DNA from: an uncultured Candidatus Saccharibacteria bacterium | Lineage (GTDB): Bacteria; Patescibacteriota; Minisyncoccia; Phycocordibacterales; PALSA-1337 | NCBI GenBank assembly: GCA_964416985.1 | Contig: CAYQFS010000001.1 | Coordinates: 83,413-147,412 of the forward strand | DNA length: 64,000 nt | Direction of reading: 5' to 3' | In this document: in pieces, positions 5,370-45,371 of the stretch | Numbering within the stretch: the stretch's first letter is position 1 | Layout of the letters: each line of letters begins with the position of its first letter | Notes under the pieces: model-generated | What the model saw: only the letters and a program-made list of their open reading frames with translations | Told to the model about the DNA's origin: nothing | The model's database searches: none | Position numbers and translations under genes: made by a program

Positions 5370-6557
5370 ATGGCAGCAGAATTTAATCGTACGAAGCCGC
5401 ACGTTAACGTTGGTACTATTGGCCACGTCGACCACGGAAAGACAACACTTACTACATCTATCCTCGCAGTCCAGGCAAAGGATGGTCTTGCTCAGCTCAA
5501 GGCCTATGCCGACATTGCAAAGGGAGGAACAGTTCGAGACGCAACAAAGGTGGTTACCATCTCTCTTGCACACGTAGAATACGAGTCAGATGCTCGACAC
5601 TACGCTCACATCGACGCCCCAGGTCACGCCGACTACATCAAGAACATGATTACTGGTGCCGCTCAAATGGACGGTGCTATTCTCGTTGTATCAGCAACTG
5701 ATGGAGTTATGCCACAGACACGAGAACACATTCTTCTTGCAAAGCAGGTTGGAGTTCCTCGCGTTGTAGTTTTCCTTAACAAGTGCGATATGGTCCCTGA
5801 AAAGGATCTTCTCGACCTCGTTGAAGAGGAAGTTCGAGACCTTCTTACAAAGAACGGATTCGACGGAAAAGCAGCTCCAGTTATCCGAGGTTCAGCTTTG
5901 AAGGCTCTCGAAGGGGATCCTGCATACGTAGCAAAGATCAAGGAACTTATGACAGCTCTCGATACATTTATTCCTACACCAGTGCGTGAAGTTGATAAGC
6001 CTTTCCTTATGCCGATCGAGGACATTTTCTCAATCGAAGGACGAGGAACGGTGGTAACAGGACGCATTGAGCGAGGTATGATCAAGGTTGGAGAAGAAGT
6101 TGAAATTCTTGGATTCAAGGATACTTCAAAGACAACTATTACTGGTATCGAAATGTTCAACAAGTCACTCAAAGAGGGAATGGCCGGAGACAATGCAGGT
6201 CTTCTTCTCCGAGGTACTGGAAAGGACGATGTTACTCGAGGTATGGTTCTTGCAAAGACTGGCTCAGTAAAGCCACACACAGAGTTCGAGTCTGAAGTGT
6301 ACATTCTCAAGAAAGAAGAGGGAGGACGACACACACCATTCTTCACAGGATACAAGCCTCAGTTCTATATCCGAACAACAGACGTTACAGGAGAAGTTAC
6401 TCTTGCAGCAGGTGTTGAGATGGTTATGCCAGGAGACACAGTTACTTTCAAGGTTAAGCTTGTAGCTCCAGTTGCTCTTGAAGACAAGATGCGATTCGCT
6501 ATCCGAGAAGGAGGAAAGACTGTCGGTGCAGGAGTTGTAACAAAGATCACAGCTTAA
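5370..6557 (+). CDS. tuf: elongation factor Tu
   Basis: 395 aa with [19 protein letters not shown] and NKCD motifs. GGGAGG RBS upstream. Confidence 0.98.
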
Positions 6558-6567
6558 TCTCATTATT

Positions 6568-25292: not shown

Positions 25293-25355
25293 ATTGGCCG
25301 TAGACAAGAAGAAAGCCGACCCATGATGGATCGGCTTACCTGAGATTTCGAAGAG

Positions 25356-26147
25356 TCAGGGTTTCGGAAGGAGGATGTCCTCGACACTTTTCCTTATTGT
25401 CGGCCACCGCGAGAGTAGTTGAACTAGTTGCAGTTGCTGTTCTGGTGTTGCTTCAGATTTGTAGCCGATTGTCTCAACCCATTTCCAGAACGCCCCCTGA
25501 AGCAGGGGCAAGAAGTCCTGATTGCAAAAAAGGAACAGAGAGCATTTCTCTCGGACTTCTGCAACGGATTTTGCTCCCATTCCCTGAATTTGTTGAAGCG
25601 TCCGTGGTGACAACACACATACCTGCCAGACATACTCGAAGTTTCCTCGACAGAGGCAGTTGGCGGCACGTGACTGTAATTCCAATTCATTTACCGATGA
25701 TGCAAGTAGCGTTGCCACACCGTTAATCGTGTTTTTGTTAATGGCTAGGCCTAGGAATTTCTCGCACACTATTCTTCCCATAATCTCTGGTCGACAGTGT
25801 GAATGAAGTCCGGCATCACATCCCGCCTCAATCATTGATTGACGATTGTCCACCCGGCAGCTCACTGCAACCATCTTTAAGTTTGGGTTTTTTTGTCTCA
25901 CTGAGCTAATGATCTGTCGGACTTCCTGTTCTGAAAATCCCAAATCCCAGACAATGAGTATGACGTCGTAGCAAGCCTCCCTGATCTGATTAATGAGGCT
26001 CGCTATTTTTTCATGAGCGTCGCACTTGAACAGTTCAGTCTGACAGCGTTCATCATTGCCAACAGCCGACATCACTTTTTGACTACAGTCCTCTTCCTGT
26101 CCTACAGAGAAATGCCTTAGGCTAACTACTAAAATCTTCTTTTCCAT
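25356..26147 (-). CDS. Cys-rich protein: degenerate CheY-like receiver domain fused to RNA polymerase alpha-subunit C-terminal-domain-like HhH domain
   Basis: N-terminal segment with receiver-like spacing: KILVVS, then YDVILIVWDLGF (Asp at the phospho-acceptor position), then KMVAVSC. C-terminal segment: LELQSRAANCLCRGNFEYVWQVCVLSPRTLQQIQGMGAKSVAEVREK aligns with E. coli alpha-CTD [48 protein letters not shown]. 16 Cys in 263 aa. Confidence 0.6.
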   Translation of the reverse strand: MEKKILVVSLRHFSVGQEEDCSQKVMSAVGNDERCQTELFKCDAHEKIASLINQIREACYDVILIVWDLGFSEQEVRQIISSVRQKNPNLKMVAVSCRVDNRQSMIEAGCDAGLHSHCRPEIMGRIVCEKFLGLAINKNTINGVATLLASSVNELELQSRAANCLCRGNFEYVWQVCVLSPRTLQQIQGMGAKSVAEVREKCSLFLFCNQDFLPLLQGAFWKWVETIGYKSEATPEQQLQLVQLLSRWPTIRKSVEDILLPKP

Positions 26148-26259
26148 AGAAGTCTCCTTTCAACGAACATTCGCATAGTGCTCGTAAGAGCGGTTGAAGC
26201 CAAGCGAGGGCGAAGTAAATACTAAAACCACACTATAATAAAATAGCGTCTTTGTCAAA

Positions 26260-26675
26260 TGGTGGAGATGGGCGGAATTGAACCGCCGTGCAGTTGAAGT
26301 TTCATGATGCTTCTACAATGTGTAGCTAGCTTTAGCGAGATCTCTCTCTTTTGACCTGCATGCTTGAAAGCAAGCAAAACACATGCAGGCGATTCCCCAA
26401 GTTTCGGATTACAAGCAGGGAAGAGAATGTAATCCACGTCGGAGGTTATATCAACTCATCACAGCTTCCGATGCGAAGTGAGAGCCGTCGCCTAAGGCAG
26501 AGTTTAAGCTGCGTAAGCGAAAGCAAGGTCCTGTGTTCCAAAATATGGAGACACGAGAGACTTTACCTTTGCAACTGATGATTTTGCAGTTACGGTGTCC
26601 GTTAGTTTTAAGAGGTAACGGAACTCTACATTGCGCGGCATGAAGGGACCCCAGCTGTCGAGGCCTTTCATCCCC
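26260..26675 (-). ncRNA. ssrA: tmRNA (SsrA)
   Basis: 5' end GGGGAUGAAAGGCCUCGACAGCUGGGG (compare E. coli GGGGCUGAUUCUGGAUUCGACGGG). 3' end GGUUCAAUUCCGCCCAUCUCCACCA, with the acceptor pairing 5'-GGGGAUG with CAUCUCC-3'. Internal tag ORF ends ...LAFAYAA-UAA. smpB is immediately upstream on the same strand. Confidence 0.85.
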
Positions 26676-26711: not shown

Positions 26712-27161
26712 TTAACGATCTGAAAATTCTCTTCGAATCTCTCGGTCGGTGTCGCGCTTCCTGATGTCCTGGCGCTTATCAAATTTCTTTTTACCACGGA
26801 CAACAGCGATTTCAACCTTGATTTTCTTACCTTTATTATACAGCGAAATAGGCACTATTGTCAATCCTTTCTTTGAATCGAGTGCCGCGAGCTTTGCAAT
26901 CTCAGCTTTTGTAAGGAGAATGCGGCGATTTCTTTTTGGATCATAGGAGTCGGGAGTGTTTTTAATTTGATACGGGGCAATGCTTGCTCCAATCATGAAC
27001 GCTTCGCCACCGCGCACAGTTATGTGAGAACCGAGGAGGGAGCCCTGGTTTGTACGGAGGCTTTTGACTTCGATTCCAAGAAGCTCAATACCAGCCTCGA
27101 ATGTTTCGAGGATTTCGTAATCAAGCGACATTTTCTTGTTGTAGGCGAGTGATTCGGCCAT
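26712..27161 (-). CDS. smpB: SsrA-binding protein SmpB
   Basis: 149 aa; DYEILETFEAGIELLGIEVKSLR matches the SmpB core, with a basic C-terminal tail. Confidence 0.92.
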   Translation of the reverse strand: MAESLAYNKKMSLDYEILETFEAGIELLGIEVKSLRTNQGSLLGSHITVRGGEAFMIGASIAPYQIKNTPDSYDPKRNRRILLTKAEIAKLAALDSKKGLTIVPISLYNKGKKIKVEIAVVRGKKKFDKRQDIRKRDTDREIRREFSDR

Positions 27162-27299: not shown

Positions 27300-27563
27300 T
27301 CAGTGATTAGGGTGATACAGGTCACTTGCGAGCATGCTCGCAACTTCTGCATTACCCGTCAACACACTTGTCGTGGTTTCTCCACCAAATGCTAACGTGA
27401 TCAGCAGAATGATAATCGCGATTGCGTAACAAATCTGACGATTTATTCTTGACTTGCTCCGGCGTCGGAGACGTCGACCTTGACGTCTCCGGGAGCGCTC
27501 CATATTTGCTAAGTCAAGTGGTGTGCCAGAGTTGAAGTCTGGCGGCAGTTCATACGTTGCCAT
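27300..27563 (-). CDS. small hypothetical membrane protein
   Basis: 87 aa with an Arg-rich segment (RSRRRQGRRLRRRSKSR), then one TM helix. (TCAGTGA)x3 tandem heptamer overlapping the stop codon. Confidence 0.4.
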   Translation of the reverse strand: MATYELPPDFNSGTPLDLANMERSRRRQGRRLRRRSKSRINRQICYAIAIIILLITLAFGGETTTSVLTGNAEVASMLASDLYHPNH

Positions 27564-27733
27564 GTTTTTCCTTCCTGTGATGTTGTTACTGTTGTTTCTG
27601 ACAACATACTAGCATATTAAAGTATAATGTCAATAGGTGGTAGTATGTTTAAAAGTGGATAACAAACGTATTAAAAGATGATCATAAAAGAGCATATTTC
27701 CCTTAGGTGAGGCTATTGTAGGTAGTGTATTCA

Positions 27734-27742
27734 TGGTATAAT
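27734..27742 (+). promoter_or_regulatory. extended -10 promoter element (TGgTATAAT) for the large surface protein gene
   Basis: Perfect TGnTATAAT 20 nt upstream of ATG 27762. Confidence 0.5.
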
Positions 27743-27761
27743 TTGGTGACTGATAATAGCC

Positions 27762-30700
27762 ATGAAACATTCCTGGATCAAGAAGATTTTTATCGCATCC
27801 TTTTTCATAGTAGTTTTCTTGTCTCCTCTTAGTAATGTACGTGCTGATATTACCTCGAGCTTTCTTGGTCACTGGACATTTGATACTACTAACACGAATT
27901 GGGGCACTAATACAACATCTGACACATCCAGTAATGGGTATAATGGTACATTAACTAATTTTTATTCTGCGACGAGTACTGTTGTTGGGCAGCTCAATCA
28001 AGGTCTCTATTTTGATGGTGTCGATGATAAAGTAAGTCTCCCAACATCAGTTGTTGGCAGTAGTATAACACTTTCTGCATGGATAAAGCCTGCGGTGGTT
28101 AACAAGGAGCAACGCATCATTAACTACCATAACCGGTATCGACTCGAACTTTCTGATAATGGAAAACTATACTGTGCATTTCATACTGTAAATCAGTCAT
28201 GGAACTTCTGTAGTACTCTCGGAAATACCACACTTGTAGCGAATCGTTGGTACCACGTCGCTGTAACATACGATGGATCGTCGACGTATACGTATTATCT
28301 AAATGGAGTCGCAAACGGAAGTAACTCATCTCAATTTACTGGGGCATTAACTGGAGGGTCACTTACTCCTTGTATTGGTGATGCCTGTGGAGATGGAAAT
28401 ACTACAGCTTTTTTTAAGGGATCAATGGATGATGTCAACATCTACAGTCGAGCCCTTTCTTCTGGCGATATGCTTGAGTTGTATACTTCTGCTTTTGTAC
28501 CCACCATCACTACCTCCGATGCATCTTCCATCACCGCTACAACTGCCACTCTCAATGGTTCGATAGATGTTGCCAATGCCGCCTCCTCAACAATCCGAGG
28601 ATTTGCTTATGGGACGAGCGCAACACTTTCTACGGTAATAGCTACTACAACCGAGAGTGGGATATTTGATTCGGGAGCATTTACTTCAGCTGTTTCCGGT
28701 CTTACAGGAAATACGACATATTATGTACGAGCATATGCGTCAAATGCTACATCGACAGGGTATGGAACTATCAAATCTTTCACCACCTCTGTGGCTGTGG
28801 TTGTCCCTACAGTGACAGTTCAGTCGGCTTCCTCAATTACTGCAACTATGGTTACCCTGAATGGGACAATGACGTCTGATGGGAATGCTTCCTCTACTGT
28901 ACGAGGCTTTGCATATGGGACAGATACTAGTTACAGTCTGGGAACAACTACCGAGAATGGTACCTTTGCAATAGGTTCTTTCACAAGTAGCATCTCTTCT
29001 CTCACGTGTAATACGACGTATCATGTGCGTGCATACTCTACAAATTCGGCGGGAACAGGCTTTAGCGGCGATCAGACATTTTTAACAAGCCCATGTGTTC
29101 CAGGAAATCCAACCTCCGTTGTTGCTGTAGCGGGGAATGGTCAGGCGACTATATCATTTACTATTCCTGGAAGTGATGGGGGGTCTACGATTTTGTACTA
29201 CACTGCATCTTCGACCCCAGGAACCCAAGCTGGTTACGGGACTTCTCCGATTACAGTCTCGGGACTTTCAAATGGAACCACATATACATTTACTGTAACT
29301 GCTACAAATGCAGTTGGGACAAGTACCGCAAGTTCTGCATCAAACTCGATAACTCCTTCTACAACACCCACCATCACTACCTCCGACGCATCTTCCATCA
29401 CCGCTACAACTGCCACTCTCAATGGTTCGATAGATGCTCTCGGGGGAGCTTCTGTTACTGATCGTGGTTTTGAATGGGGTACTAATAATGCTTATGGAAA
29501 TAGTATTTCAACAAACGGCAGTTACTCGGTAGGAACATATAATGCAGATCTTTCTGGTTTGACGTGTAATACTGAATATCATGTACGAGCATTTGCAACT
29601 AACTCTGTCGGGACTGCTTCATCAAGCGATTCTTCTTTTACAACTTCTGCCTGCCCGGTATCATCTACTCCTTCCTCAAGCAGCGGTAGTTCTTCGGGCG
29701 GTGGGGGGAGATCAGGATTTGTTCAAATACTTCCCACCCCTTCTCTTGTTACAAAAGTTTTTGATATCATTACCCCTTCTTTTCTAAAGCCTAAAGTAGT
29801 TCCTGCCGCTGTTGCTCCCATCATAGAAATTAAAAACCCTCTTGACGGGTCGTGGAAACTTCTTCCTCAAGAGCCAGTGAAATCTTTTGTCCTTGCTCCA
29901 TTACCTGAGGAAGTGCTCGTTCTCACTGCCAAGTTTCCTGAATTAGAAAAGACGTTCAAAACACTTGGTATTACCAAGGTAAGTGATCTCGGTAAACTTA
30001 AAAATGCAAGTATCAATCTACCCAACTTGAGTGCACGAGTAGGTGCTAATGGGGCAGTTCCAATTGGTTCTTTAACTCCAGATCAGAAGAAGATGCTTCC
30101 GACCGAAGTTGTTTTTGCAAGATCGGGTACTGTTGATTATAACGTAGGACTTACTGTAAATAACGGAAATCCTGAACAGCAGGTAAAAACAATTGTTGGA
30201 AAGCCACTCGATCTTGCCATTAAAGCCGATAAACCCGTTAAAGAAATAAAAGGTTACTTGACCGTGAAAAACATCGAAAGAAAGTCTGTTTCAAGGCCTA
30301 TCCCTTCCGATTCAATGCTTGCTTCAGTCGTTGCTGCGATATTACCAACACCACATCCACGGACTGAAGGGGTTGAAGTAGAACAAAAACTTGTTCTTCA
30401 GGAATTTAATTATAGTGATGATAATAATGACGGGATTTACACTGCCCAAGTTCAGACTCCCTTACTTAAGGGTGAATACGATATTATTTCAGTAATGCAG
30501 TATCGGGATATTAAATTAGGTTCCAAAGAGTTTCATTTGACAACTGTCGTTGATCCGGAAGGATATATTTATCGTGATAGTGGTAATGGAGAAGAGACTC
30601 GTATTCATGACGCTACTGTCACTATTTTTCAAAAGAATCTTAGTACATCAGATTTTGAATTATGGCCGGCAAATAATTTCCAACAGACAAATCCTCAATT

Positions 30701-30893
30701 GACGGATAAGAGCGGAACTTACTCGTTCCTTGTTCCTGAAGGTATTTACAAAATTACTGTATCTGCACCTGGTTACGAGGATTATATAGGCAGTGAGTTC
30801 TCTGTTGTACAGGGTGGGGGAGTACATACAAACATTGTTCTCAAGCCGAAAGGTGTGTGGAATCGTTTCTTGCGTTCAATAAAATTAAATTAG
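27762..30893 (+). CDS. large secreted/surface protein: signal peptide, LamG (concanavalin A-like) domain, ~5 tandem Fn3-like repeats, C-terminal carboxypeptidase-regulatory-like beta-sandwich
   Basis: 1043 aa. N-terminal signal peptide (MKHSWIKKIFIASFFIVVFLSPLSNVRA). LamG-like block (...YFDGVDDKV...LSAWIKP...WYHVAVTYDG...). Repeated ~95-aa units with SSITATTATLNGSID...YYVRAYASNA..G.G..SFTTS. G/S-rich linker. C-terminal DATVTIFQKN...GTYSFLVPEGIYKITVSAPGYEDY. Confidence 0.75.
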   Translation: MKHSWIKKIFIASFFIVVFLSPLSNVRADITSSFLGHWTFDTTNTNWGTNTTSDTSSNGYNGTLTNFYSATSTVVGQLNQGLYFDGVDDKVSLPTSVVGSSITLSAWIKPAVVNKEQRIINYHNRYRLELSDNGKLYCAFHTVNQSWNFCSTLGNTTLVANRWYHVAVTYDGSSTYTYYLNGVANGSNSSQFTGALTGGSLTPCIGDACGDGNTTAFFKGSMDDVNIYSRALSSGDMLELYTSAFVPTITTSDASSITATTATLNGSIDVANAASSTIRGFAYGTSATLSTVIATTTESGIFDSGAFTSAVSGLTGNTTYYVRAYASNATSTGYGTIKSFTTSVAVVVPTVTVQSASSITATMVTLNGTMTSDGNASSTVRGFAYGTDTSYSLGTTTENGTFAIGSFTSSISSLTCNTTYHVRAYSTNSAGTGFSGDQTFLTSPCVPGNPTSVVAVAGNGQATISFTIPGSDGGSTILYYTASSTPGTQAGYGTSPITVSGLSNGTTYTFTVTATNAVGTSTASSASNSITPSTTPTITTSDASSITATTATLNGSIDALGGASVTDRGFEWGTNNAYGNSISTNGSYSVGTYNADLSGLTCNTEYHVRAFATNSVGTASSSDSSFTTSACPVSSTPSSSSGSSSGGGGRSGFVQILPTPSLVTKVFDIITPSFLKPKVVPAAVAPIIEIKNPLDGSWKLLPQEPVKSFVLAPLPEEVLVLTAKFPELEKTFKTLGITKVSDLGKLKNASINLPNLSARVGANGAVPIGSLTPDQKKMLPTEVVFARSGTVDYNVGLTVNNGNPEQQVKTIVGKPLDLAIKADKPVKEIKGYLTVKNIERKSVSRPIPSDSMLASVVAAILPTPHPRTEGVEVEQKLVLQEFNYSDDNNDGIYTAQVQTPLLKGEYDIISVMQYRDIKLGSKEFHLTTVVDPEGYIYRDSGNGEETRIHDATVTIFQKNLSTSDFELWPANNFQQTNPQLTDKSGTYSFLVPEGIYKITVSAPGYEDYIGSEFSVVQGGGVHTNIVLKPKGVWNRFLRSIKLN

Positions 30894-30898
30894 ATAAT

Positions 30899-31276
30899 AT
30901 GAAGAATATGTTTACAAAAAATTCCTTCATGATCATAGCTATTGGGGTACTTGCAATTACAACAATTTTGTATTCTATAAAAAGTTACTCCTTGGCGCAG
31001 AGACTTGCAGAAATGGAAAAAAATCTCCAACCACAGGTTGCTCACACGGAGATTGCGAAGTTTACGAAATTATTTATTGATAAAGTTTTGAATGCAGAAG
31101 GTTCGGTAAGTTTTGACACAAGACTTGAGCTAGAGAATGCTGTACGTGCGACGAGAGATGATGAGCTTTTATCTCAGTGGAATGCCTTTGTGAATAGTAA
31201 GACAGAAGCAGAGGCACAGACTCAAGTTAAAAGATTGTTGGCTATGTTGGTAACAAAGATTGTTCCAGCTCAATAA
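30899..31276 (+). CDS. membrane-anchored hypothetical protein (N-terminal TM + helical domain)
   Basis: Start chosen at MKNMFTKNSF... right after the upstream stop (ORF track gives 30857). 126 aa. Confidence 0.45.
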   Translation: MKNMFTKNSFMIIAIGVLAITTILYSIKSYSLAQRLAEMEKNLQPQVAHTEIAKFTKLFIDKVLNAEGSVSFDTRLELENAVRATRDDELLSQWNAFVNSKTEAEAQTQVKRLLAMLVTKIVPAQ

Positions 31277-31330
31277 ATAAAAAAGCCCCGAAAAAATTCG
31301 GGGCTGTGAAAGGGGGCTATAAGCCTCCCG
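31271..31330. terminator. tandem hairpin terminators between convergent genes
   Basis: AGCCCCGAA-aaaa-TTCGGGGCT perfect hairpin (31284-31305) with A-tract upstream, which is a T-tract on the minus strand. Second hairpin GGGGGCT-ata-AGCCTCC (31312-31329). Confidence 0.6.
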
Positions 31331-31343
31331 ATTCTAATTTATT

Positions 31344-33512
31344 TTACTGATGGCCAAGGAGCCATGAAGGTAGGGCGGTACCTCGTACTGCCTGCTTTCG
31401 ATTAATTTCTTCAACCGCGACCTCTTTCTTCACTCTTTCAACAATGCGGTCATCGATGAATGTTTTTTCTCCGACGAGATACTCGGGGAGACCGAAGGGG
31501 TTGAAAGGTAATGGAGGAGCATCTGGGTGCGTCAATGAATATTTTGACACCGTTGGGTCACCATTTTCCTTACCATCCAGAATCGTACCAATTTCTATTA
31601 GCTGTTGGCGAGCCATTTTTCGTGACTCGGATTGAGATGATTTTAGTGTGTAGCTTTGTTGCATCATCATCTGTTGTCCCGATTGGTATGAACCACTTGG
31701 CCAGACTGTTCGGAAGAATAGTGTCTGGCGATTGTTAACTGCGATTGCGGCTACCGCTTTTCGCAGCGGTCCTACAACAACCGTTGCCTCGACTGTCCAA
31801 GGACCATCGATGCTCTCTGCGACAAGTACGTCGTTCGTGGTATTTGGGATTGAGTGTACCACCAGATAGTTCGTCGTCCGGTCGAGAGTGAGTCCGTTGT
31901 AGTTGATAGGATCATCGTACACGTAGTTGGTGATTGCTGGCCCAAATGGCCCTTCAACAAGGGGATACCATTCCCGACTCAGATTCCAGAACGTGTTCGA
32001 ACTGGCTTTGTTGAGGGCGAAACCTTCACCGACAGCAAGTTGTGGCATTGTTGGCCACCACGAGTTACTTGTATACATGTAATTCGTGTATGTCCCGCTT
32101 GTGGGAAGGTATTGGTATAAGATGTCACCTTCAGTCACGGGTAACTTAAAACTCTCAGGATTTCCTGCCCGTGGATAAGGATATGACAGAATACTTTCGT
32201 GGTCGAGGATTTCACGTCCTATTCCTCCTTGTAAAACACGTCCTGCAAATGTGACAGAGATAGTGCTTCCTGAGGGGTTCGAAACCAGAGCTGCTTCTCC
32301 TGCAACAAGTTTGTCATTAGGGATAGTCCAGTTTGTTCCATCCCATATGTTTGTCGTCCATGTAGACCCGTACGACTTTTCAACCCTGCTTCCCGCAGGT
32401 AACTTGTAGAAGAGTTTCTTAATTCGAGGATCCATCACCGAAAACTGATTTGCGACAAGTGCTTTCTTGCCTGCAGCGATGGAAACCGTGTAGTACCCAA
32501 TAATATTCGAGACATCATTGGTTGATCTTATCCTGAAGTACAGGTTACTCGCTCCACCACTATAAACGTTCAGGGACATGATACCGTTTGTGGTAGAGTT
32601 TGCTGAACTTGATATTGTCGTCGACACTATAGTCCAATCTTGGGAGAGCAGATTGGTCTTTGATTCAAGGATGTAGGTTGTGCCTTCCGTTACCCATCCG
32701 AGTTTCAATGTCAGTAACTCATTTTGCCCAACAACATTTACTCCTTTAGGCAGACCTTGCTGCCATAAGCTAATTGTGTGTTTTTGAATTCCTATTGCTG
32801 GCTGAGCAAAGACATTTGTCACGATTATTGCAAGTGGGTTAGTACTTACCACTTTCACATCCCACGTTGCGATACTTGTATTTGAAGCTTTGTACGCTGT
32901 GGTTGCTGAGCCGTTTGTCCCTTTTACTGTAAAGGCAGCAAAAGGCCGACTGAGATGATCCATAAAAGGATCGTATAGTATGCTCACTGTCGCTTCGTTA
33001 GTTACTGATAAGCCGAAGCCATCAGGTGAATTGCCTAGACCCACATCACTTGAACCTCCAGATGAGTTATTTGTGGATGCTGCAATTTCCATGAAGTTTA
33101 ATGGAGGGTAGTACGGGTCCCCTGGACCAGAAGGAATGTGACCGCCATAGACGACCGGTGGGTCTGGCTGCATCCAGTCGTCGAATATACCACCGAAGTC
33201 TGGATCAAATGATGGTATGATCGGTGGCGGTTCATTGTTTGTGTAATTTGGGTATGATGGTTTTCCCGAAGGGAAATCGGGAGGAAAGGTGGGTGGTTCG
33301 TATGGAGGGCTATTGGTTTTTCCACTATTGATCTCGTCGATCAGGTTACTCGAAACTTCAGAGATCAAGTTTGTGAAGTCGTTGTTTAGTGTGTTGGTGA
33401 CGCCCACGTAGGGATCTGTGTATGTGGGGACACCTAGTGCCTGATTTAACCAACCAGTAACAATTAATGTTACCACAATGCTCATGAGAGCGTTCAACGG
33501 ATTTCGTTTCAT
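31344..33512 (-). CDS. large secreted hypothetical protein, Pro-rich N-terminal region
   Basis: Start chosen at MKRNPLNALMSIVVTLIVTGWLNQALG (signal peptide) with an AAAGGAAG RBS; ORF-track start 33650 rejected. 723 aa. PPYEPPTFPPDFPSGKPSYP low-complexity region, then S/T/N-rich beta-rich body. No known catalytic motif. Confidence 0.6.
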   Translation of the reverse strand: MKRNPLNALMSIVVTLIVTGWLNQALGVPTYTDPYVGVTNTLNNDFTNLISEVSSNLIDEINSGKTNSPPYEPPTFPPDFPSGKPSYPNYTNNEPPPIIPSFDPDFGGIFDDWMQPDPPVVYGGHIPSGPGDPYYPPLNFMEIAASTNNSSGGSSDVGLGNSPDGFGLSVTNEATVSILYDPFMDHLSRPFAAFTVKGTNGSATTAYKASNTSIATWDVKVVSTNPLAIIVTNVFAQPAIGIQKHTISLWQQGLPKGVNVVGQNELLTLKLGWVTEGTTYILESKTNLLSQDWTIVSTTISSSANSTTNGIMSLNVYSGGASNLYFRIRSTNDVSNIIGYYTVSIAAGKKALVANQFSVMDPRIKKLFYKLPAGSRVEKSYGSTWTTNIWDGTNWTIPNDKLVAGEAALVSNPSGSTISVTFAGRVLQGGIGREILDHESILSYPYPRAGNPESFKLPVTEGDILYQYLPTSGTYTNYMYTSNSWWPTMPQLAVGEGFALNKASSNTFWNLSREWYPLVEGPFGPAITNYVYDDPINYNGLTLDRTTNYLVVHSIPNTTNDVLVAESIDGPWTVEATVVVGPLRKAVAAIAVNNRQTLFFRTVWPSGSYQSGQQMMMQQSYTLKSSQSESRKMARQQLIEIGTILDGKENGDPTVSKYSLTHPDAPPLPFNPFGLPEYLVGEKTFIDDRIVERVKKEVAVEEINRKQAVRGTALPSWLLGHQ

Positions 33513-33729
33513 TTGCTTCCTTTCATCTGACCTGTTTTGGTTGTACCCCCTTGTAAAGGAAAGACCATCGGGGGGTAATGCGATGGTCGGCTGGCTATCA
33601 AATAACAAAATAACCAATCTAAAATTGAGGGTATCATAAAATAAGTCCATCGACCATTGACAGATTGGGAAACATGTCCTCCGTTGGAAAACTGTTTTCT
33701 TTCATTTTCCCCAATTTATCGTATAATCA

Positions 33730-36634: not shown

Positions 36635-36708
36635 GCGCCTTTAGCTCAGTTGGTTAGAGCACAGAGCTTATACCTCTGGGGTCCTTGGTTCGAATCCAAG
36701 AAGGCGCA
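36635..36708 (+). tRNA. tRNA-Ile (anticodon UAU)
   Basis: Cloverleaf: acceptor GCGCCTT/AAGGCGC; D-arm GCTC-AGTTGGTTA-GAGC; anticodon stem CAGAG/CTCTG with loop CT-TAT-AC; T-arm CTTGG-TTCGAAT-CCAAG; discriminator A. CCA not encoded. Confidence 0.85.
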
Positions 36709-36710
36709 CA

Positions 36711-42540: not shown

Positions 42541-44688
42541 ATGCCAAAAAAAATTATAAAAAGGAACGGTGTCCAGGAAGATTTTAATAGTACAAAAATT
42601 GCCGCAGCCATTGCCAAAGCAGGAAAGGCCACGGGAGAGCTTACTGAAAAGGAAGCCAAGGTCATTACAAAGCAGATCGTGGACATTCTTGATAAAGAAT
42701 CGCGGGAAAAGATTCCCACGGTCGAGAATGTCCAGGATATTGTCGAGAGAGTGCTCATGCGATCGAGATTCAAGCTCACAGCCAAGGCCTACATCCTTTA
42801 TCGAGAACAGCACGCGGAACTTCGGGCATTTGCGACGGCCCGTTCTCTTGATCTTGTCGACAGTTACCTCGACCGGCTTGACTGGCAGGTTAAGGAGAAC
42901 AGCAACATGGGCTACTCGCTCCAAGGTCTGAACAACTATATTTTTTCAGAAGTAAGTAAGACCTACTGGCTCAACAAAATCTATCCTCATGAGATCCGCG
43001 AGGCATATGAAAAGGGGGATCTTCATATTCATGACCTTGGAACCATTTCTATTTATTGTGTTGGATGGGATCTCATGGATCTACTTCTCGAGGGATTTAA
43101 GGGAGTTTCGGACAAAATTGAATCGGCTCCTCCAAAGCATCTTCGCACAGCACTCGGTCAGGTTGTGAACTTCATGTACACCCTCCAGGGAGAGGCTGCG
43201 GGTGCAATTGCTTTCTCGAACTTCGATACACTTCTCGCTCCGTTCATTCGTTATGACAAACTTTCCTTTGCCGAGGTCAAGCAATGCCTTCAGGAATTTA
43301 TTTTTAACATGAATGTTCCGACTCGTGTCGGTTTTCAGACTCCATTCTCAAATATAACTCTTGACCTTACACCGTCACCAAACTTCAAGAAGCAGGGTGT
43401 CGTTATCGGTGGGAAAATCATGAAAGAAAAATACTCTGAATTCCAGGAGGAAATGAATACCTTGAACAGAGCACTTTTTGAGGTAATGGGAGAAGGGGAT
43501 GCGGCAGGAAGAGTCTTCACCTTTCCGATCCCCACAGTTAATGTCACAAAGGATTTTGAATGGAACAATCCAAATCTCGCAGGGCTTTGGGAAATAACGG
43601 CTAAGTATGGCGTTCCGTATTTCAGCAATTTTGTAAATTCCGACATGAAACCGGAAGATACTCGCTCAATGTGCTGCAGACTTCGCCTCGACCTCGAGGA
43701 GCTCGACCGAAGAGGGGGAGGACTTTTTGGGGCAAATGCTCTCACAGGTTCTGTCGGTGTGGTGACCATGAATCTTCCTCGTTTTGCATATCTTGCTTCA
43801 AAACAGAAGGGTGCACGTGCGGAAAAAGCTTTCTTTGACATGCTTGCTCAAAAAATGGACATTGCAAAAGAAAGTCTCGAAATTAAACGAAAGATGCTCG
43901 AAAAACTAACTGATGCAAATCTCTATCCTTATACAAAATTCTATCTAAGAAAAATAAAAGCCGGCTTCGGGGAATATTGGAGGAATCATTTCTCGACGAT
44001 CGGGCTTGTAGGAATGAATGAGGCCTGCCTCAATCTTATCGGAAAAGATATTGGGACGGCTGAGGGAGCAGCTTTTGCAGGTAGGGTCCTCGACTACATG
44101 AGAAATCGACTCATTGGCTACCAAAAAGAGACGGGAAATTTGTTTAATCTTGAGGCAACTCCGGCAGAGGGAACTGCGTACCGCCTTGCTCTCCGTGACA
44201 AAAAACTTTACCCAGAAATTATCGTTGCAAATGAAGAGGAATTCAAAAAGGGTGCGCAGCCATTCTACACAAATTCCTCACATCTCCCGGTGTATTATAC
44301 GGATGATATTGTGGAGACCCTCGATATTCAAGACAAACTTCAGACAAAATATACAGGAGGAACTGTCATCCATCTTTTCCTAGGTGAAAGAATCCGCGAT
44401 GCAGCAGCTATCCCGGCTCTCGTAAAAAAGATTTGCGAGAGATATCATCTTCCGTATTTTACTATTACTCCGACATTCAGCGTCTGCCGTTCTCATGGGT
44501 ATCTCGCCGGCGAGCACACCCTGTGTCCGTCATGCAGCGCAGAGTGTGAAGTGTATTCGCGCATTGTTGGGTATTTGCGGCCAGTCAGTCAGTGGAATGA
44601 GGGTAAACAGGCAGAGTATGAACTAAGAAAGGAATATGAGCCGGCGATAAAGGTCGGAAGGAGTATAAAAACATCGACAACAGCGTGA
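42541..44688 (+). CDS. nrdD: anaerobic ribonucleoside-triphosphate reductase (class III RNR)
   Basis: 715 aa. N-terminal ATP-cone (KIIKRNGVQEDFNSTKI). C-terminal Cys4 zinc ribbon (CPSC...C) and glycyl-radical loop RIVGYLRPV. Confidence 0.9.
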   Translation: MPKKIIKRNGVQEDFNSTKIAAAIAKAGKATGELTEKEAKVITKQIVDILDKESREKIPTVENVQDIVERVLMRSRFKLTAKAYILYREQHAELRAFATARSLDLVDSYLDRLDWQVKENSNMGYSLQGLNNYIFSEVSKTYWLNKIYPHEIREAYEKGDLHIHDLGTISIYCVGWDLMDLLLEGFKGVSDKIESAPPKHLRTALGQVVNFMYTLQGEAAGAIAFSNFDTLLAPFIRYDKLSFAEVKQCLQEFIFNMNVPTRVGFQTPFSNITLDLTPSPNFKKQGVVIGGKIMKEKYSEFQEEMNTLNRALFEVMGEGDAAGRVFTFPIPTVNVTKDFEWNNPNLAGLWEITAKYGVPYFSNFVNSDMKPEDTRSMCCRLRLDLEELDRRGGGLFGANALTGSVGVVTMNLPRFAYLASKQKGARAEKAFFDMLAQKMDIAKESLEIKRKMLEKLTDANLYPYTKFYLRKIKAGFGEYWRNHFSTIGLVGMNEACLNLIGKDIGTAEGAAFAGRVLDYMRNRLIGYQKETGNLFNLEATPAEGTAYRLALRDKKLYPEIIVANEEEFKKGAQPFYTNSSHLPVYYTDDIVETLDIQDKLQTKYTGGTVIHLFLGERIRDAAAIPALVKKICERYHLPYFTITPTFSVCRSHGYLAGEHTLCPSCSAECEVYSRIVGYLRPVSQWNEGKQAEYELRKEYEPAIKVGRSIKTSTTA

Positions 44689-45371
44689 TCTTTGGAGGAT
44701 TTGAAAAGTTTACGCTTATAGACTACCCCGGAAAAATTTCGTCCGTGGTTTATACAATAGGATGTAACTTTCAATGCCCATATTGCCACAATCCTGAACT
44801 TGTAAATGAGACAGTCGAAAAAAGATTTAAGGAAAAGGAGATTCTGGAATTTTTGGAACACAGAAAAGGGATGATTGATGCACTCGTCATTACAGGAGGA
44901 GAGCCAACTATGCACGATGAACTTCTCGCGTTTATGGAGAAGGTTAAATGGCTCGGGATTCTTGTTAAACTCGATTCAAATGGAACAAGACCTGACATTT
45001 TGAAAAAGGCGGTGGAGAGAAAAATTGTCGACTACATTGCAATGGACATAAAATCTCCCTTATCAAAATATAGCGCTATTGTGGCGAGGCCGGTCGATAT
45101 CGATGCTGTCAAAGAGAGCATCACATTTCTCCTCGAATCAAAGGTCGAGTACGAATTCCGCACTACTGTTGTCAAAGCACTTCTTTCTCCGGCCGATATT
45201 GAACAAATGGGAAAAGAAATCCGGGGAGCAAAGAGATACTATCTCCAAAAATTCATTCCAACAAAAATACTCAATCCTCAATTTAAGAAAAAAGTGTGCT
45301 ACACAGATGCTGAAATGAAAAGTTTTAGAACCAAAATATTGAAATATGTCGACCACTGCGAAATTAGGTAA
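44685..45371 (+). CDS. nrdG: anaerobic RNR activating enzyme (radical SAM)
   Basis: CNFQCPYCHN radical-SAM CxxxCxxC. Overlaps the nrdD stop (ATGA). Confidence 0.9.
   Translation: MIFGGFEKFTLIDYPGKISSVVYTIGCNFQCPYCHNPELVNETVEKRFKEKEILEFLEHRKGMIDALVITGGEPTMHDELLAFMEKVKWLGILVKLDSNGTRPDILKKAVERKIVDYIAMDIKSPLSKYSAIVARPVDIDAVKESITFLLESKVEYEFRTTVVKALLSPADIEQMGKEIRGAKRYYLQKFIPTKILNPQFKKKVCYTDAEMKSFRTKILKYVDHCEIR

Follow-up and report, generated by a model that had tools for sequence, protein, structure and literature searches.

Gene X, a 263-aa open reading frame (ORF) in a 64,000-nucleotide stretch of contig CAYQFS010000001.1 from an uncultured Candidatus Saccharibacteria bacterium (the whole stretch is hereafter called the window), was found to combine three modules in one polypeptide: a receiver-like N-terminal domain without the phospho-acceptor aspartate, a central domain of the type found at the C-terminus of the RNA polymerase alpha subunit (alpha-CTD), and a C-terminal extension of three helices. 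The alpha-CTD is the hub where bacterial activators and UP elements contact RNA polymerase. Based on its domain content, we propose with moderate confidence that X is a DNA-binding, orphan, atypical response-regulator-like transcription factor. The fusion of an alpha-CTD with a receiver-type domain had been suggested in a first-pass annotation made from the letters alone, and it was borne out by Pfam, the AlphaFold2 (AF2) model, Foldseek and hhalign. The full-length model (pLDDT 87.4, pTM 0.72) found its PDB fold matches in Foldseek among regulators with a receiver (REC) domain plus a helical output domain, such as NarL, RcsB and VraR. Searching for homologues with the same fusion, as had been advised at first pass, yielded no more than three fused sequences in 5.8 billion proteins. 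The orthologues, which are 77% and 65% identical to X, were recovered from separate samples, one being Hainich groundwater collected on a 0.1-um filter; they have the same length and architecture, and keep the alpha-CTD-like segment. Because the architecture is shared and pairwise dN/dS was 0.19-0.31, X is a real gene under purifying selection.

The identity of the central domain was established by sequence and by structure. The Pfam family PF03118 (RNA_pol_A_CTD) matched residues 146-201 of X significantly (E=1.8e-11, 44 bits vs a gathering cut-off of 23.8), as the first-pass annotation had led us to expect, and all significant matches of X in a PDB sequence search were RpoA C-terminal domains. 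Both helix-hairpin-helix motifs on which that annotation relied, LELQSRAANCL and GMGAKSVAEV, were present in X. Its placement of the domain in the C-terminal ~50 aa has to be corrected, since the domain is central (residues ~140-206) and is followed by an extension of ~57 aa. The superposition on E. coli alpha-CTD that it had proposed gave 0.9 A over 58-59 residues (AF2 model of the C-terminal half, pLDDT 81.5; 1LB2, 3N4M, 3K4G). Residues R160, N163, C164, G191, K193 and S194 of X align to R265, N268, C269, G296, K298 and S299 of E. coli alpha. In this alignment, all six residues with which E. coli alpha-CTD contacts the UP-element minor groove are kept in X, and the equivalents of R265 and G296 are invariant throughout the family of proteins sharing the C-terminal half (the C-domain family). 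One RpoA from Patescibacteria (encoded at 5556-6560 of locus L009) has an alpha-CTD that has diverged at several of these contacts (RTTKAL vs RSANCL and GSKG vs GKKS), and the contact residues of X are nearer to those of E. coli than the residues of this RpoA are. In addition, W174 of X stands where E. coli alpha has G279; this tryptophan is invariant in the C-domain family and is likely to pack onto the extension.

X is not RpoA, because the alpha N-terminal domain (alpha-NTD) is absent: neither RNA_pol_L nor RNA_pol_A_bac was found in Pfam at E<=10, and the NCBIfam rpoA equivalogs reached 17-38 bits vs cut-offs of 228-523, with only the CTD part matched. The possibility raised at first pass that X is a piece of a broken rpoA came out negative as well. 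There is no alpha-NTD remnant, the tmRNA gene lies directly upstream, the orthologues have the same architecture, and a relative has an intact rpoA. X is situated outside the rpsM-rpsK-rpsD-rpoA-rplQ operon and is equipped with a Shine-Dalgarno sequence and a terminator of its own. A hidden Markov model (HMM) search of the 64-kb window detected neither rpoA nor a further alpha-CTD, which agrees with the earlier statement that the window lacks rpoA.

Considering that each half of X is also encoded on its own, by a small gene, in related bacteria, X is, on comparison of these sequences, the product of a domain fusion rather than what is left of an rpoA. The N-domain occurs alone in proteins of 123-142 aa (P0005, P0006, P0027, P0088), and the alpha-CTD occurs with the same extension in C-domain-only proteins of 131-143 aa (P0004, P0007, P0026, P0089-91). 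In P0011 and P0012 (257 aa) the N-domain is at the C-terminus, behind an unrelated N-terminal part, and it is therefore reused with other partners. These module groups were obtained from exhaustive phmmer searches (1.8 billion representatives) and protein-index searches. The family is small, comprising about a dozen clusters. The N-domain profile (A3) recovered two proteins only from the index of 5.8 billion proteins, and no match was obtained in genome contigs (alignment A1) or metagenome contigs (A1, A8). Among 92 loci examined by HMM searches, there was none in which separate N- and C-domain genes were neighbours.

The N-terminal domain has the (beta/alpha)5 fold at residues 3-131 of the AF2 model. 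Its top Foldseek matches in PDB were the response regulators NarL, RcsB, VraR and PorX, with isolated REC domains at a TM-score (TMt) of ~0.7. The profile of the N-domain family matched a receiver profile (built from CheY, Spo0F, PhoB, P0067 and P0072) over the whole domain in hhalign (96.2%, E=2.6e-9), and two canonical receivers, P0067 and P0072, were matched at E~3e-4 in the exhaustive phmmer search. Based on hhalign and BLASTP to true receivers, the acidic pair of CheY (D12/D13) corresponds to S9/L10 in X, the phospho-acceptor D57 to V66, W58 to W67, N59 to D68, the beta4 Ser/Thr (T87) to S96 and the conserved Lys (K109) to S116. Loss of the acidic pair had been noticed at first pass and was confirmed. 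The aspartate of VWDLGF, which had been assigned to the acceptor site, is D68 and comes two residues too late, the acceptor position being V66. This position is V or I across the N-domain family, whereas S96 is kept and invariant in the family and is the sole phosphotransfer residue left. The family-invariant residues are C42, W67, F71, P88, S96 and A108-G109-C110. Because this receiver homologue lacks the expected residues at four of five catalytic-site features, the N-domain of X is classified from its sequence as a full pseudo-receiver, or aspartate-less receiver, in which canonical phosphotransfer is predicted to be impossible. No histidine kinase homologue was found in the 64-kb window.

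The extension has helices at residues 212-226, 235-244 and 251-259 (DSSP of the AF2 model) and is marked by the motif FWxW...G...TPE(E/Q)..(F/L)V..L..WP. The positions of the domains, the expression signals and the adjacent genes are given in the table. The promoter-like element in front of X has sub-optimal spacing and was not reported by the consensus scan, which requires a spacer of 16-18 nt.

Table. Features of gene X and its immediate surroundings (positions in the window)
Feature	Position	Strand	Basis or remark
Gene X, 263-aa ORF (pseudo-receiver, alpha-CTD-like domain, three-helix extension)	25356..26147	-	stop codon 25356-25358
Pseudo-receiver, residues 1-134, (beta/alpha)5	25746..26147	-	DSSP of model, Foldseek, hhalign, BLASTP
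alpha-CTD-like (helix-hairpin-helix)2, (HhH)2, domain, residues ~140-206	25530..25730	-	Pfam, model, alignment
Family-specific extension, residues 207-263, three helices	25359..25529	-	model, alignment
Shine-Dalgarno sequence AAGGAG, with a 6-nt gap to the ATG of X	26154..26159	-	direct sequence reading
Putative promoter-like element TTGACA-15 nt-TATAGT, beginning directly after the CCA end of the tmRNA	26232..26258	-	inference from reading the letters
Hairpin resembling an intrinsic terminator (stem of 11 bp, T-rich tail), 19 nt past the stop of X	25313..25337	-	sequence scan
tmRNA gene (ssrA), directly upstream of X	26260-26675	-	ARAGORN and Rfam (98.9 bits)
smpB, upstream of the tmRNA gene	26712-27161	-	same strand as X

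If X is a DNA-binding regulator of this atypical kind, its alpha-CTD-like module would bind the minor groove of A/T-rich DNA, or promoter-upstream DNA more generally, and the pseudo-receiver would provide control independent of phosphorylation. The likeliest route of control would be dimerisation, by which two alpha-CTD-like modules might be paired as they are in the alpha dimer; a ligand, a partner protein or cysteine chemistry could serve as other inputs. The net effect may be the occlusion of UP-like sites, the titration of alpha-CTD partners, or the recruitment of RNA polymerase through the extension. Numerous pseudo-receivers of bacteria dimerise constitutively, with no need of phosphorylation, and they work by a variety of mechanisms that are little understood (PMC12632262). 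In RitR, cysteine chemistry can stand in for phosphorylation, which sets a precedent for cysteine-controlled aspartate-less regulators (PMC5965902, PMC4395418).

A close parallel in architecture is offered by these aspartate-less regulators (ALRs), such as RitR, HP1043, ChxR and GlnR (PMC4395418, PMC12632262). Like them, X has an acceptor-less N-domain of receiver fold, a short linker and a helical output domain of a nucleic-acid-binding type, and it is likewise an orphan, as the window contains no kinase gene. The differences are that the output domain of X is an alpha-CTD-type (HhH)2 domain and not an OmpR, NarL or other helix-turn-helix (HTH) domain, and that its receiver is too divergent for Pfam. 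Compared with the alpha-CTD of RNA polymerase itself (PF03118; 1LB2, 3K4G, 1Z3E), X has the same fold and the six contact residues. Compared with RpoA, it carries the pseudo-receiver before this domain and 57 aa after it, it has no alpha-NTD, and G279 is replaced by the invariant Trp. A receiver or pseudo-receiver with an alpha-CTD-type output was not found in those parts of the ALR output-domain supplement and of the open-access full text that were available, and within the same portion of the literature the earlier remark that no characterised regulator has the layout of X holds.

Several observations weigh against the regulator hypothesis. Pfam Response_reg (PF00072) stayed below its threshold on X (E=0.15, 12.7 bits vs 30.2), so that the first-pass description of the N-terminal ~130 aa as CheY-type stands by fold and by hhalign homology (96.2%) and fails by Pfam. 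Moreover, when the N-domain profile (A3) was searched against PDB sequences, it retrieved de novo designed alpha/beta proteins, and receivers were not significant. Since the Response_reg threshold failed and the PDB profile search missed receivers, the regulatory logic ascribed to the pseudo-receiver is conjecture. On the DNA-binding side, the N268 and K298 equivalents are variable in the more distant C-domain relatives, and sequence-specific UP-like binding may therefore not hold family-wide. The net charge of the C-terminal half is approximately neutral; the charge analysis was uninformative. Finally, no relatives of the extension were found in the PDB by fold or in Pfam, and a segment without known fold relatives might alter the surface role of the alpha-CTD.

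The resemblance to alpha-CTD also admits the explanation, put forward at first pass, that X is no classical site-specific regulator but a decoy or competitor, which occupies UP elements or titrates proteins that dock on the alpha-CTD (activators, Spx-like factors, sigma region 4 and NusA-type partners being the proposed targets) and whose activity is switched by the pseudo-receiver. We consider this unlikely, although the structural mimicry of alpha-CTD is very close, and both the contact residues and the acidic 'ELEL' segment, which corresponds to the E. coli alpha 259/261 determinant, are kept. The contact residues are even nearer to those of E. coli than are the RTTKAL and GSKG of the L009 RpoA, and competition for UP elements would be compatible with their retention. 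In the same locus a C-domain-only gene follows directly after rpsM-rpsK-rpsD-rpoA-rplQ-rplM-rpsI, in which a complete RpoA of 334 aa is encoded. On the other hand, the domain finds its nearest relatives in alpha-CTD arrays outside RpoA rather than in RpoA itself, which points to a DNA- or protein-binding module that is old and has evolved on its own, and not to recent mimicry. The invariant Trp at the G279 position may bury or reshape the activator-contact surfaces, and no association with a partner or an operon was seen in the loci examined.

The arrays in question (P0008-P0019, P0078) are tandem alpha-CTD proteins and represent the closest alpha-CTD-like sequences outside the family of X, with E down to 1e-12. 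Those combined with Sigma70_r4, HTH_3 or HARE-HTH contain 3-5 repeats in 200-1400 aa, without a receiver-like domain and without the FWxW...WP extension. Among them, P0008-P0019 span 227-1414 aa with 3-5 alpha-CTD-like repeats, most with Sigma70_r4 and some with HARE-HTH or LRR, and are apparently an unstudied class of alpha-CTD-array proteins. Considering that PF03118 modules are common outside RpoA, in arrays with Sigma70_r4, HTH_3, HARE-HTH or LRR, a free alpha-CTD-like module is not new in itself, and the free-standing state stressed in the first-pass annotation is not unique to X. The stand-alone proteins with alpha-CTD and extension (P0004, P0007, P0026, P0089-P0091) are homologous to X over the entire C-terminal half with 25-35% identity; R160, W174, G189, G191, W221, G228, V242, W248 and P249 are invariant in X and in these proteins. 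The pseudo-receiver is missing from them, the equivalents of N268 and K298 are no longer present in several, and one, P0004, is syntenic, as it follows smpB-ssrA.

The cysteines of X raise the further explanation, also suggested at first pass, that it is a redox or metal sensor, in which these cysteines, above all C42 and C110, would form a thiol switch or a metal site controlling dimerisation or DNA binding. X was described at first pass as a Cys-rich protein with 16 cysteines; it is indeed Cys-rich, and the count is 13 (4.9%), the highest of the 68 ORFs in the window, where the gene mean is 0.75%. The N-domain family is also Cys-rich (2.3-4.9%), and C42 and C110 are invariant in 8/8 aligned N-domains. 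RitR and the ALRs with a cysteine at the acceptor site (Cys-ALR) set a precedent, and the host looks anaerobic, judging from NrdD and NrdG in the window. Against this, only six of the 13 cysteines (C35, C42, C110, C177, C202, C208) are invariant in the three orthologues, P0002 having seven in all, and X has no CxxC-type or CxxH motif. Inferred from their places in the secondary structure, C42 (end of beta2) and C110 (before beta5) would lie at opposite edges of the sheet. The acceptor position is moreover occupied by Val and not by Cys, hence X is no Cys-ALR as defined in PMC4395418. Taken with both sides of this evidence, a sensor built on these cysteines seems improbable to us.

The location of X beside ssrA-smpB, correctly noted at first pass (the tmRNA gene and smpB are directly upstream), invites the idea that X acts together with trans-translation, or that it is a regulatory gene remaining from an element that had inserted at the tmRNA 3' end. 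By its SmpB the window belongs to Patescibacteria/Paceibacteria, with 'Ca. Taylorbacteria' nearest at 79% SmpB identity, and the backbone conserved among relatives consists of ftsH and of smpB-ssrA-(variable segment)-pld-infC-rpmI-rplT; downstream of X in the window are likewise a PLD-family gene, infC, rpmI and rplT. The segment 3' of ssrA is hypervariable in close relatives, measuring 150 nt in L012, 600 nt in L011, 1.56 kb in the window (where it contains X), 2.4 kb in L013 and 4.4 kb in L015. Two genes occupy this spot in L015 (8987-9427 and 9901-10260): one codes for an Xre-type HTH protein, and the other, for a receiver-like protein of 119 aa, is distant kin of the X N-domain by hhalign (88%, E=3e-6) and stayed under the Pfam threshold for Response_reg (E=8e-4). 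An arrangement in the order smpB-ssrA-X, all on one strand, is seen in the window and, with a C-domain-only gene in place of X, in L007 (GCA_964619985.1), where P0004 is followed by two histidine kinases. Further C-domain genes follow tRNA-Ala: those of L010 (7569-8396) and L092 (3469-4169), both of the P0089/P0091 subfamily, come after tRNA-Ala(tgc) downstream of uvrC-ddl. In total, a family gene follows a same-strand tRNA or tmRNA gene in 4/7 loci with enough flanking sequence; in L091 the C-domain-only gene adjoins a RhuM/Fic gene.

Nevertheless, 0/80 of the related (GTDB) smpB loci had a gene for either domain at a distance of up to 8 kb. A conserved smpB-ssrA-X synteny was consequently rejected, and the adjacency of X to ssrA-smpB is not functionally conserved. 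The fused orthologue in L002 is not beside a tmRNA gene. A prophage or island at ssrA found no support, as the window has neither an integrase nor an att-like repeat of the tmRNA 3' end, and searches of PHROGs, PADLOC and viral contigs for the X family gave no match. The GC content of X, thought at first pass to be clearly above its surroundings, is 46.7% vs 43.5 +/- 2.7% for the 68 window ORFs, i.e., +1.2 standard deviations, and several genes exceed it; this is not anomalous, and horizontal transfer signalled by GC was rejected. A role in trans-translation or an origin from an integrated element is thus very unlikely in our estimate. X is an accessory gene, restricted to its lineage, that occupies the variable site 3' of ssrA. 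Between L007 and the window the flanking PLD protein is 70% identical and the C-domain 35%, and the family therefore evolves fast.

If a regulated, independent copy of alpha-CTD does bind the same DNA or the same partners as the original, it would offer a new way to tune promoters, and free alpha-CTD surrogates would constitute a mode of global transcription control that is so far undescribed. This bears on Patescibacteria in particular, whose genomes are small and encode few regulators of classical type. In more general terms, the proteins of this family may be trans-acting alpha-CTD surrogates that work at UP-like DNA or on docking factors, those of the X type, in the lineage of the window, being under a cysteine-rich pseudo-receiver switch that answers to redox state or a partner protein instead of phosphorylation; we offer this as a speculation with a rather low chance of being correct. 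As an atypical regulator, X would bring an output domain not recorded before into the pseudo-receiver class, most of whose mechanisms are still unexplained (PMC12632262). Because the family is tiny and comes from uncultivated organisms, it is of limited importance in general unless its mechanism proves transferable.

Some further features of these loci were recorded. The two histidine kinases of L007 (6536-9032) are tandem HisKA/HATPase_c proteins, 39% identical to each other; no receiver gene was detectable on this 13.6-kb contig, and L007 is the only locus with kinases beside a C-domain-only gene. Inside smpB, ~160 nt upstream of the tmRNA 5' end, the window has a perfect sigma70 consensus (TTGACA-18 nt-TATAAT, 12/12) at 26835-26864(-), which is a candidate ssrA promoter. 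A second variable segment extends from smpB to ftsH (window 27300-33650) and contains an 87-aa ORF, a 1043-aa LamG/FN3 surface-type protein, a 139-aa ORF and a 768-aa protein without a Pfam match; the gap between smpB and ftsH is only tens to a few hundred nt in the closest relatives (L011-L016). A tRNA-Ile gene with anticodon UAU lies beside ftsH at 36635-36709(+), and the pairing of ftsH with tRNA-Ile(tat) recurs in related Paceibacteria (L007 11639-11713, L013 5903-5979, L015 2991-3066). The window also encodes NrdD, an anaerobic ribonucleotide reductase, together with the radical-SAM activase NrdG (42541-45371(+)), consistent with an anaerobic lifestyle. The tag encoded by the tmRNA of the window is unusually long with 27 residues (AKSSVAKVKSLVSPYFGTQDLAFAYAA); the tags of relatives have 18-29 residues, with the core SPYF and a hydrophobic, Ala-rich, variable C-terminus (FAYAA, FALA, FALATA, FVYATA, FAYATV).

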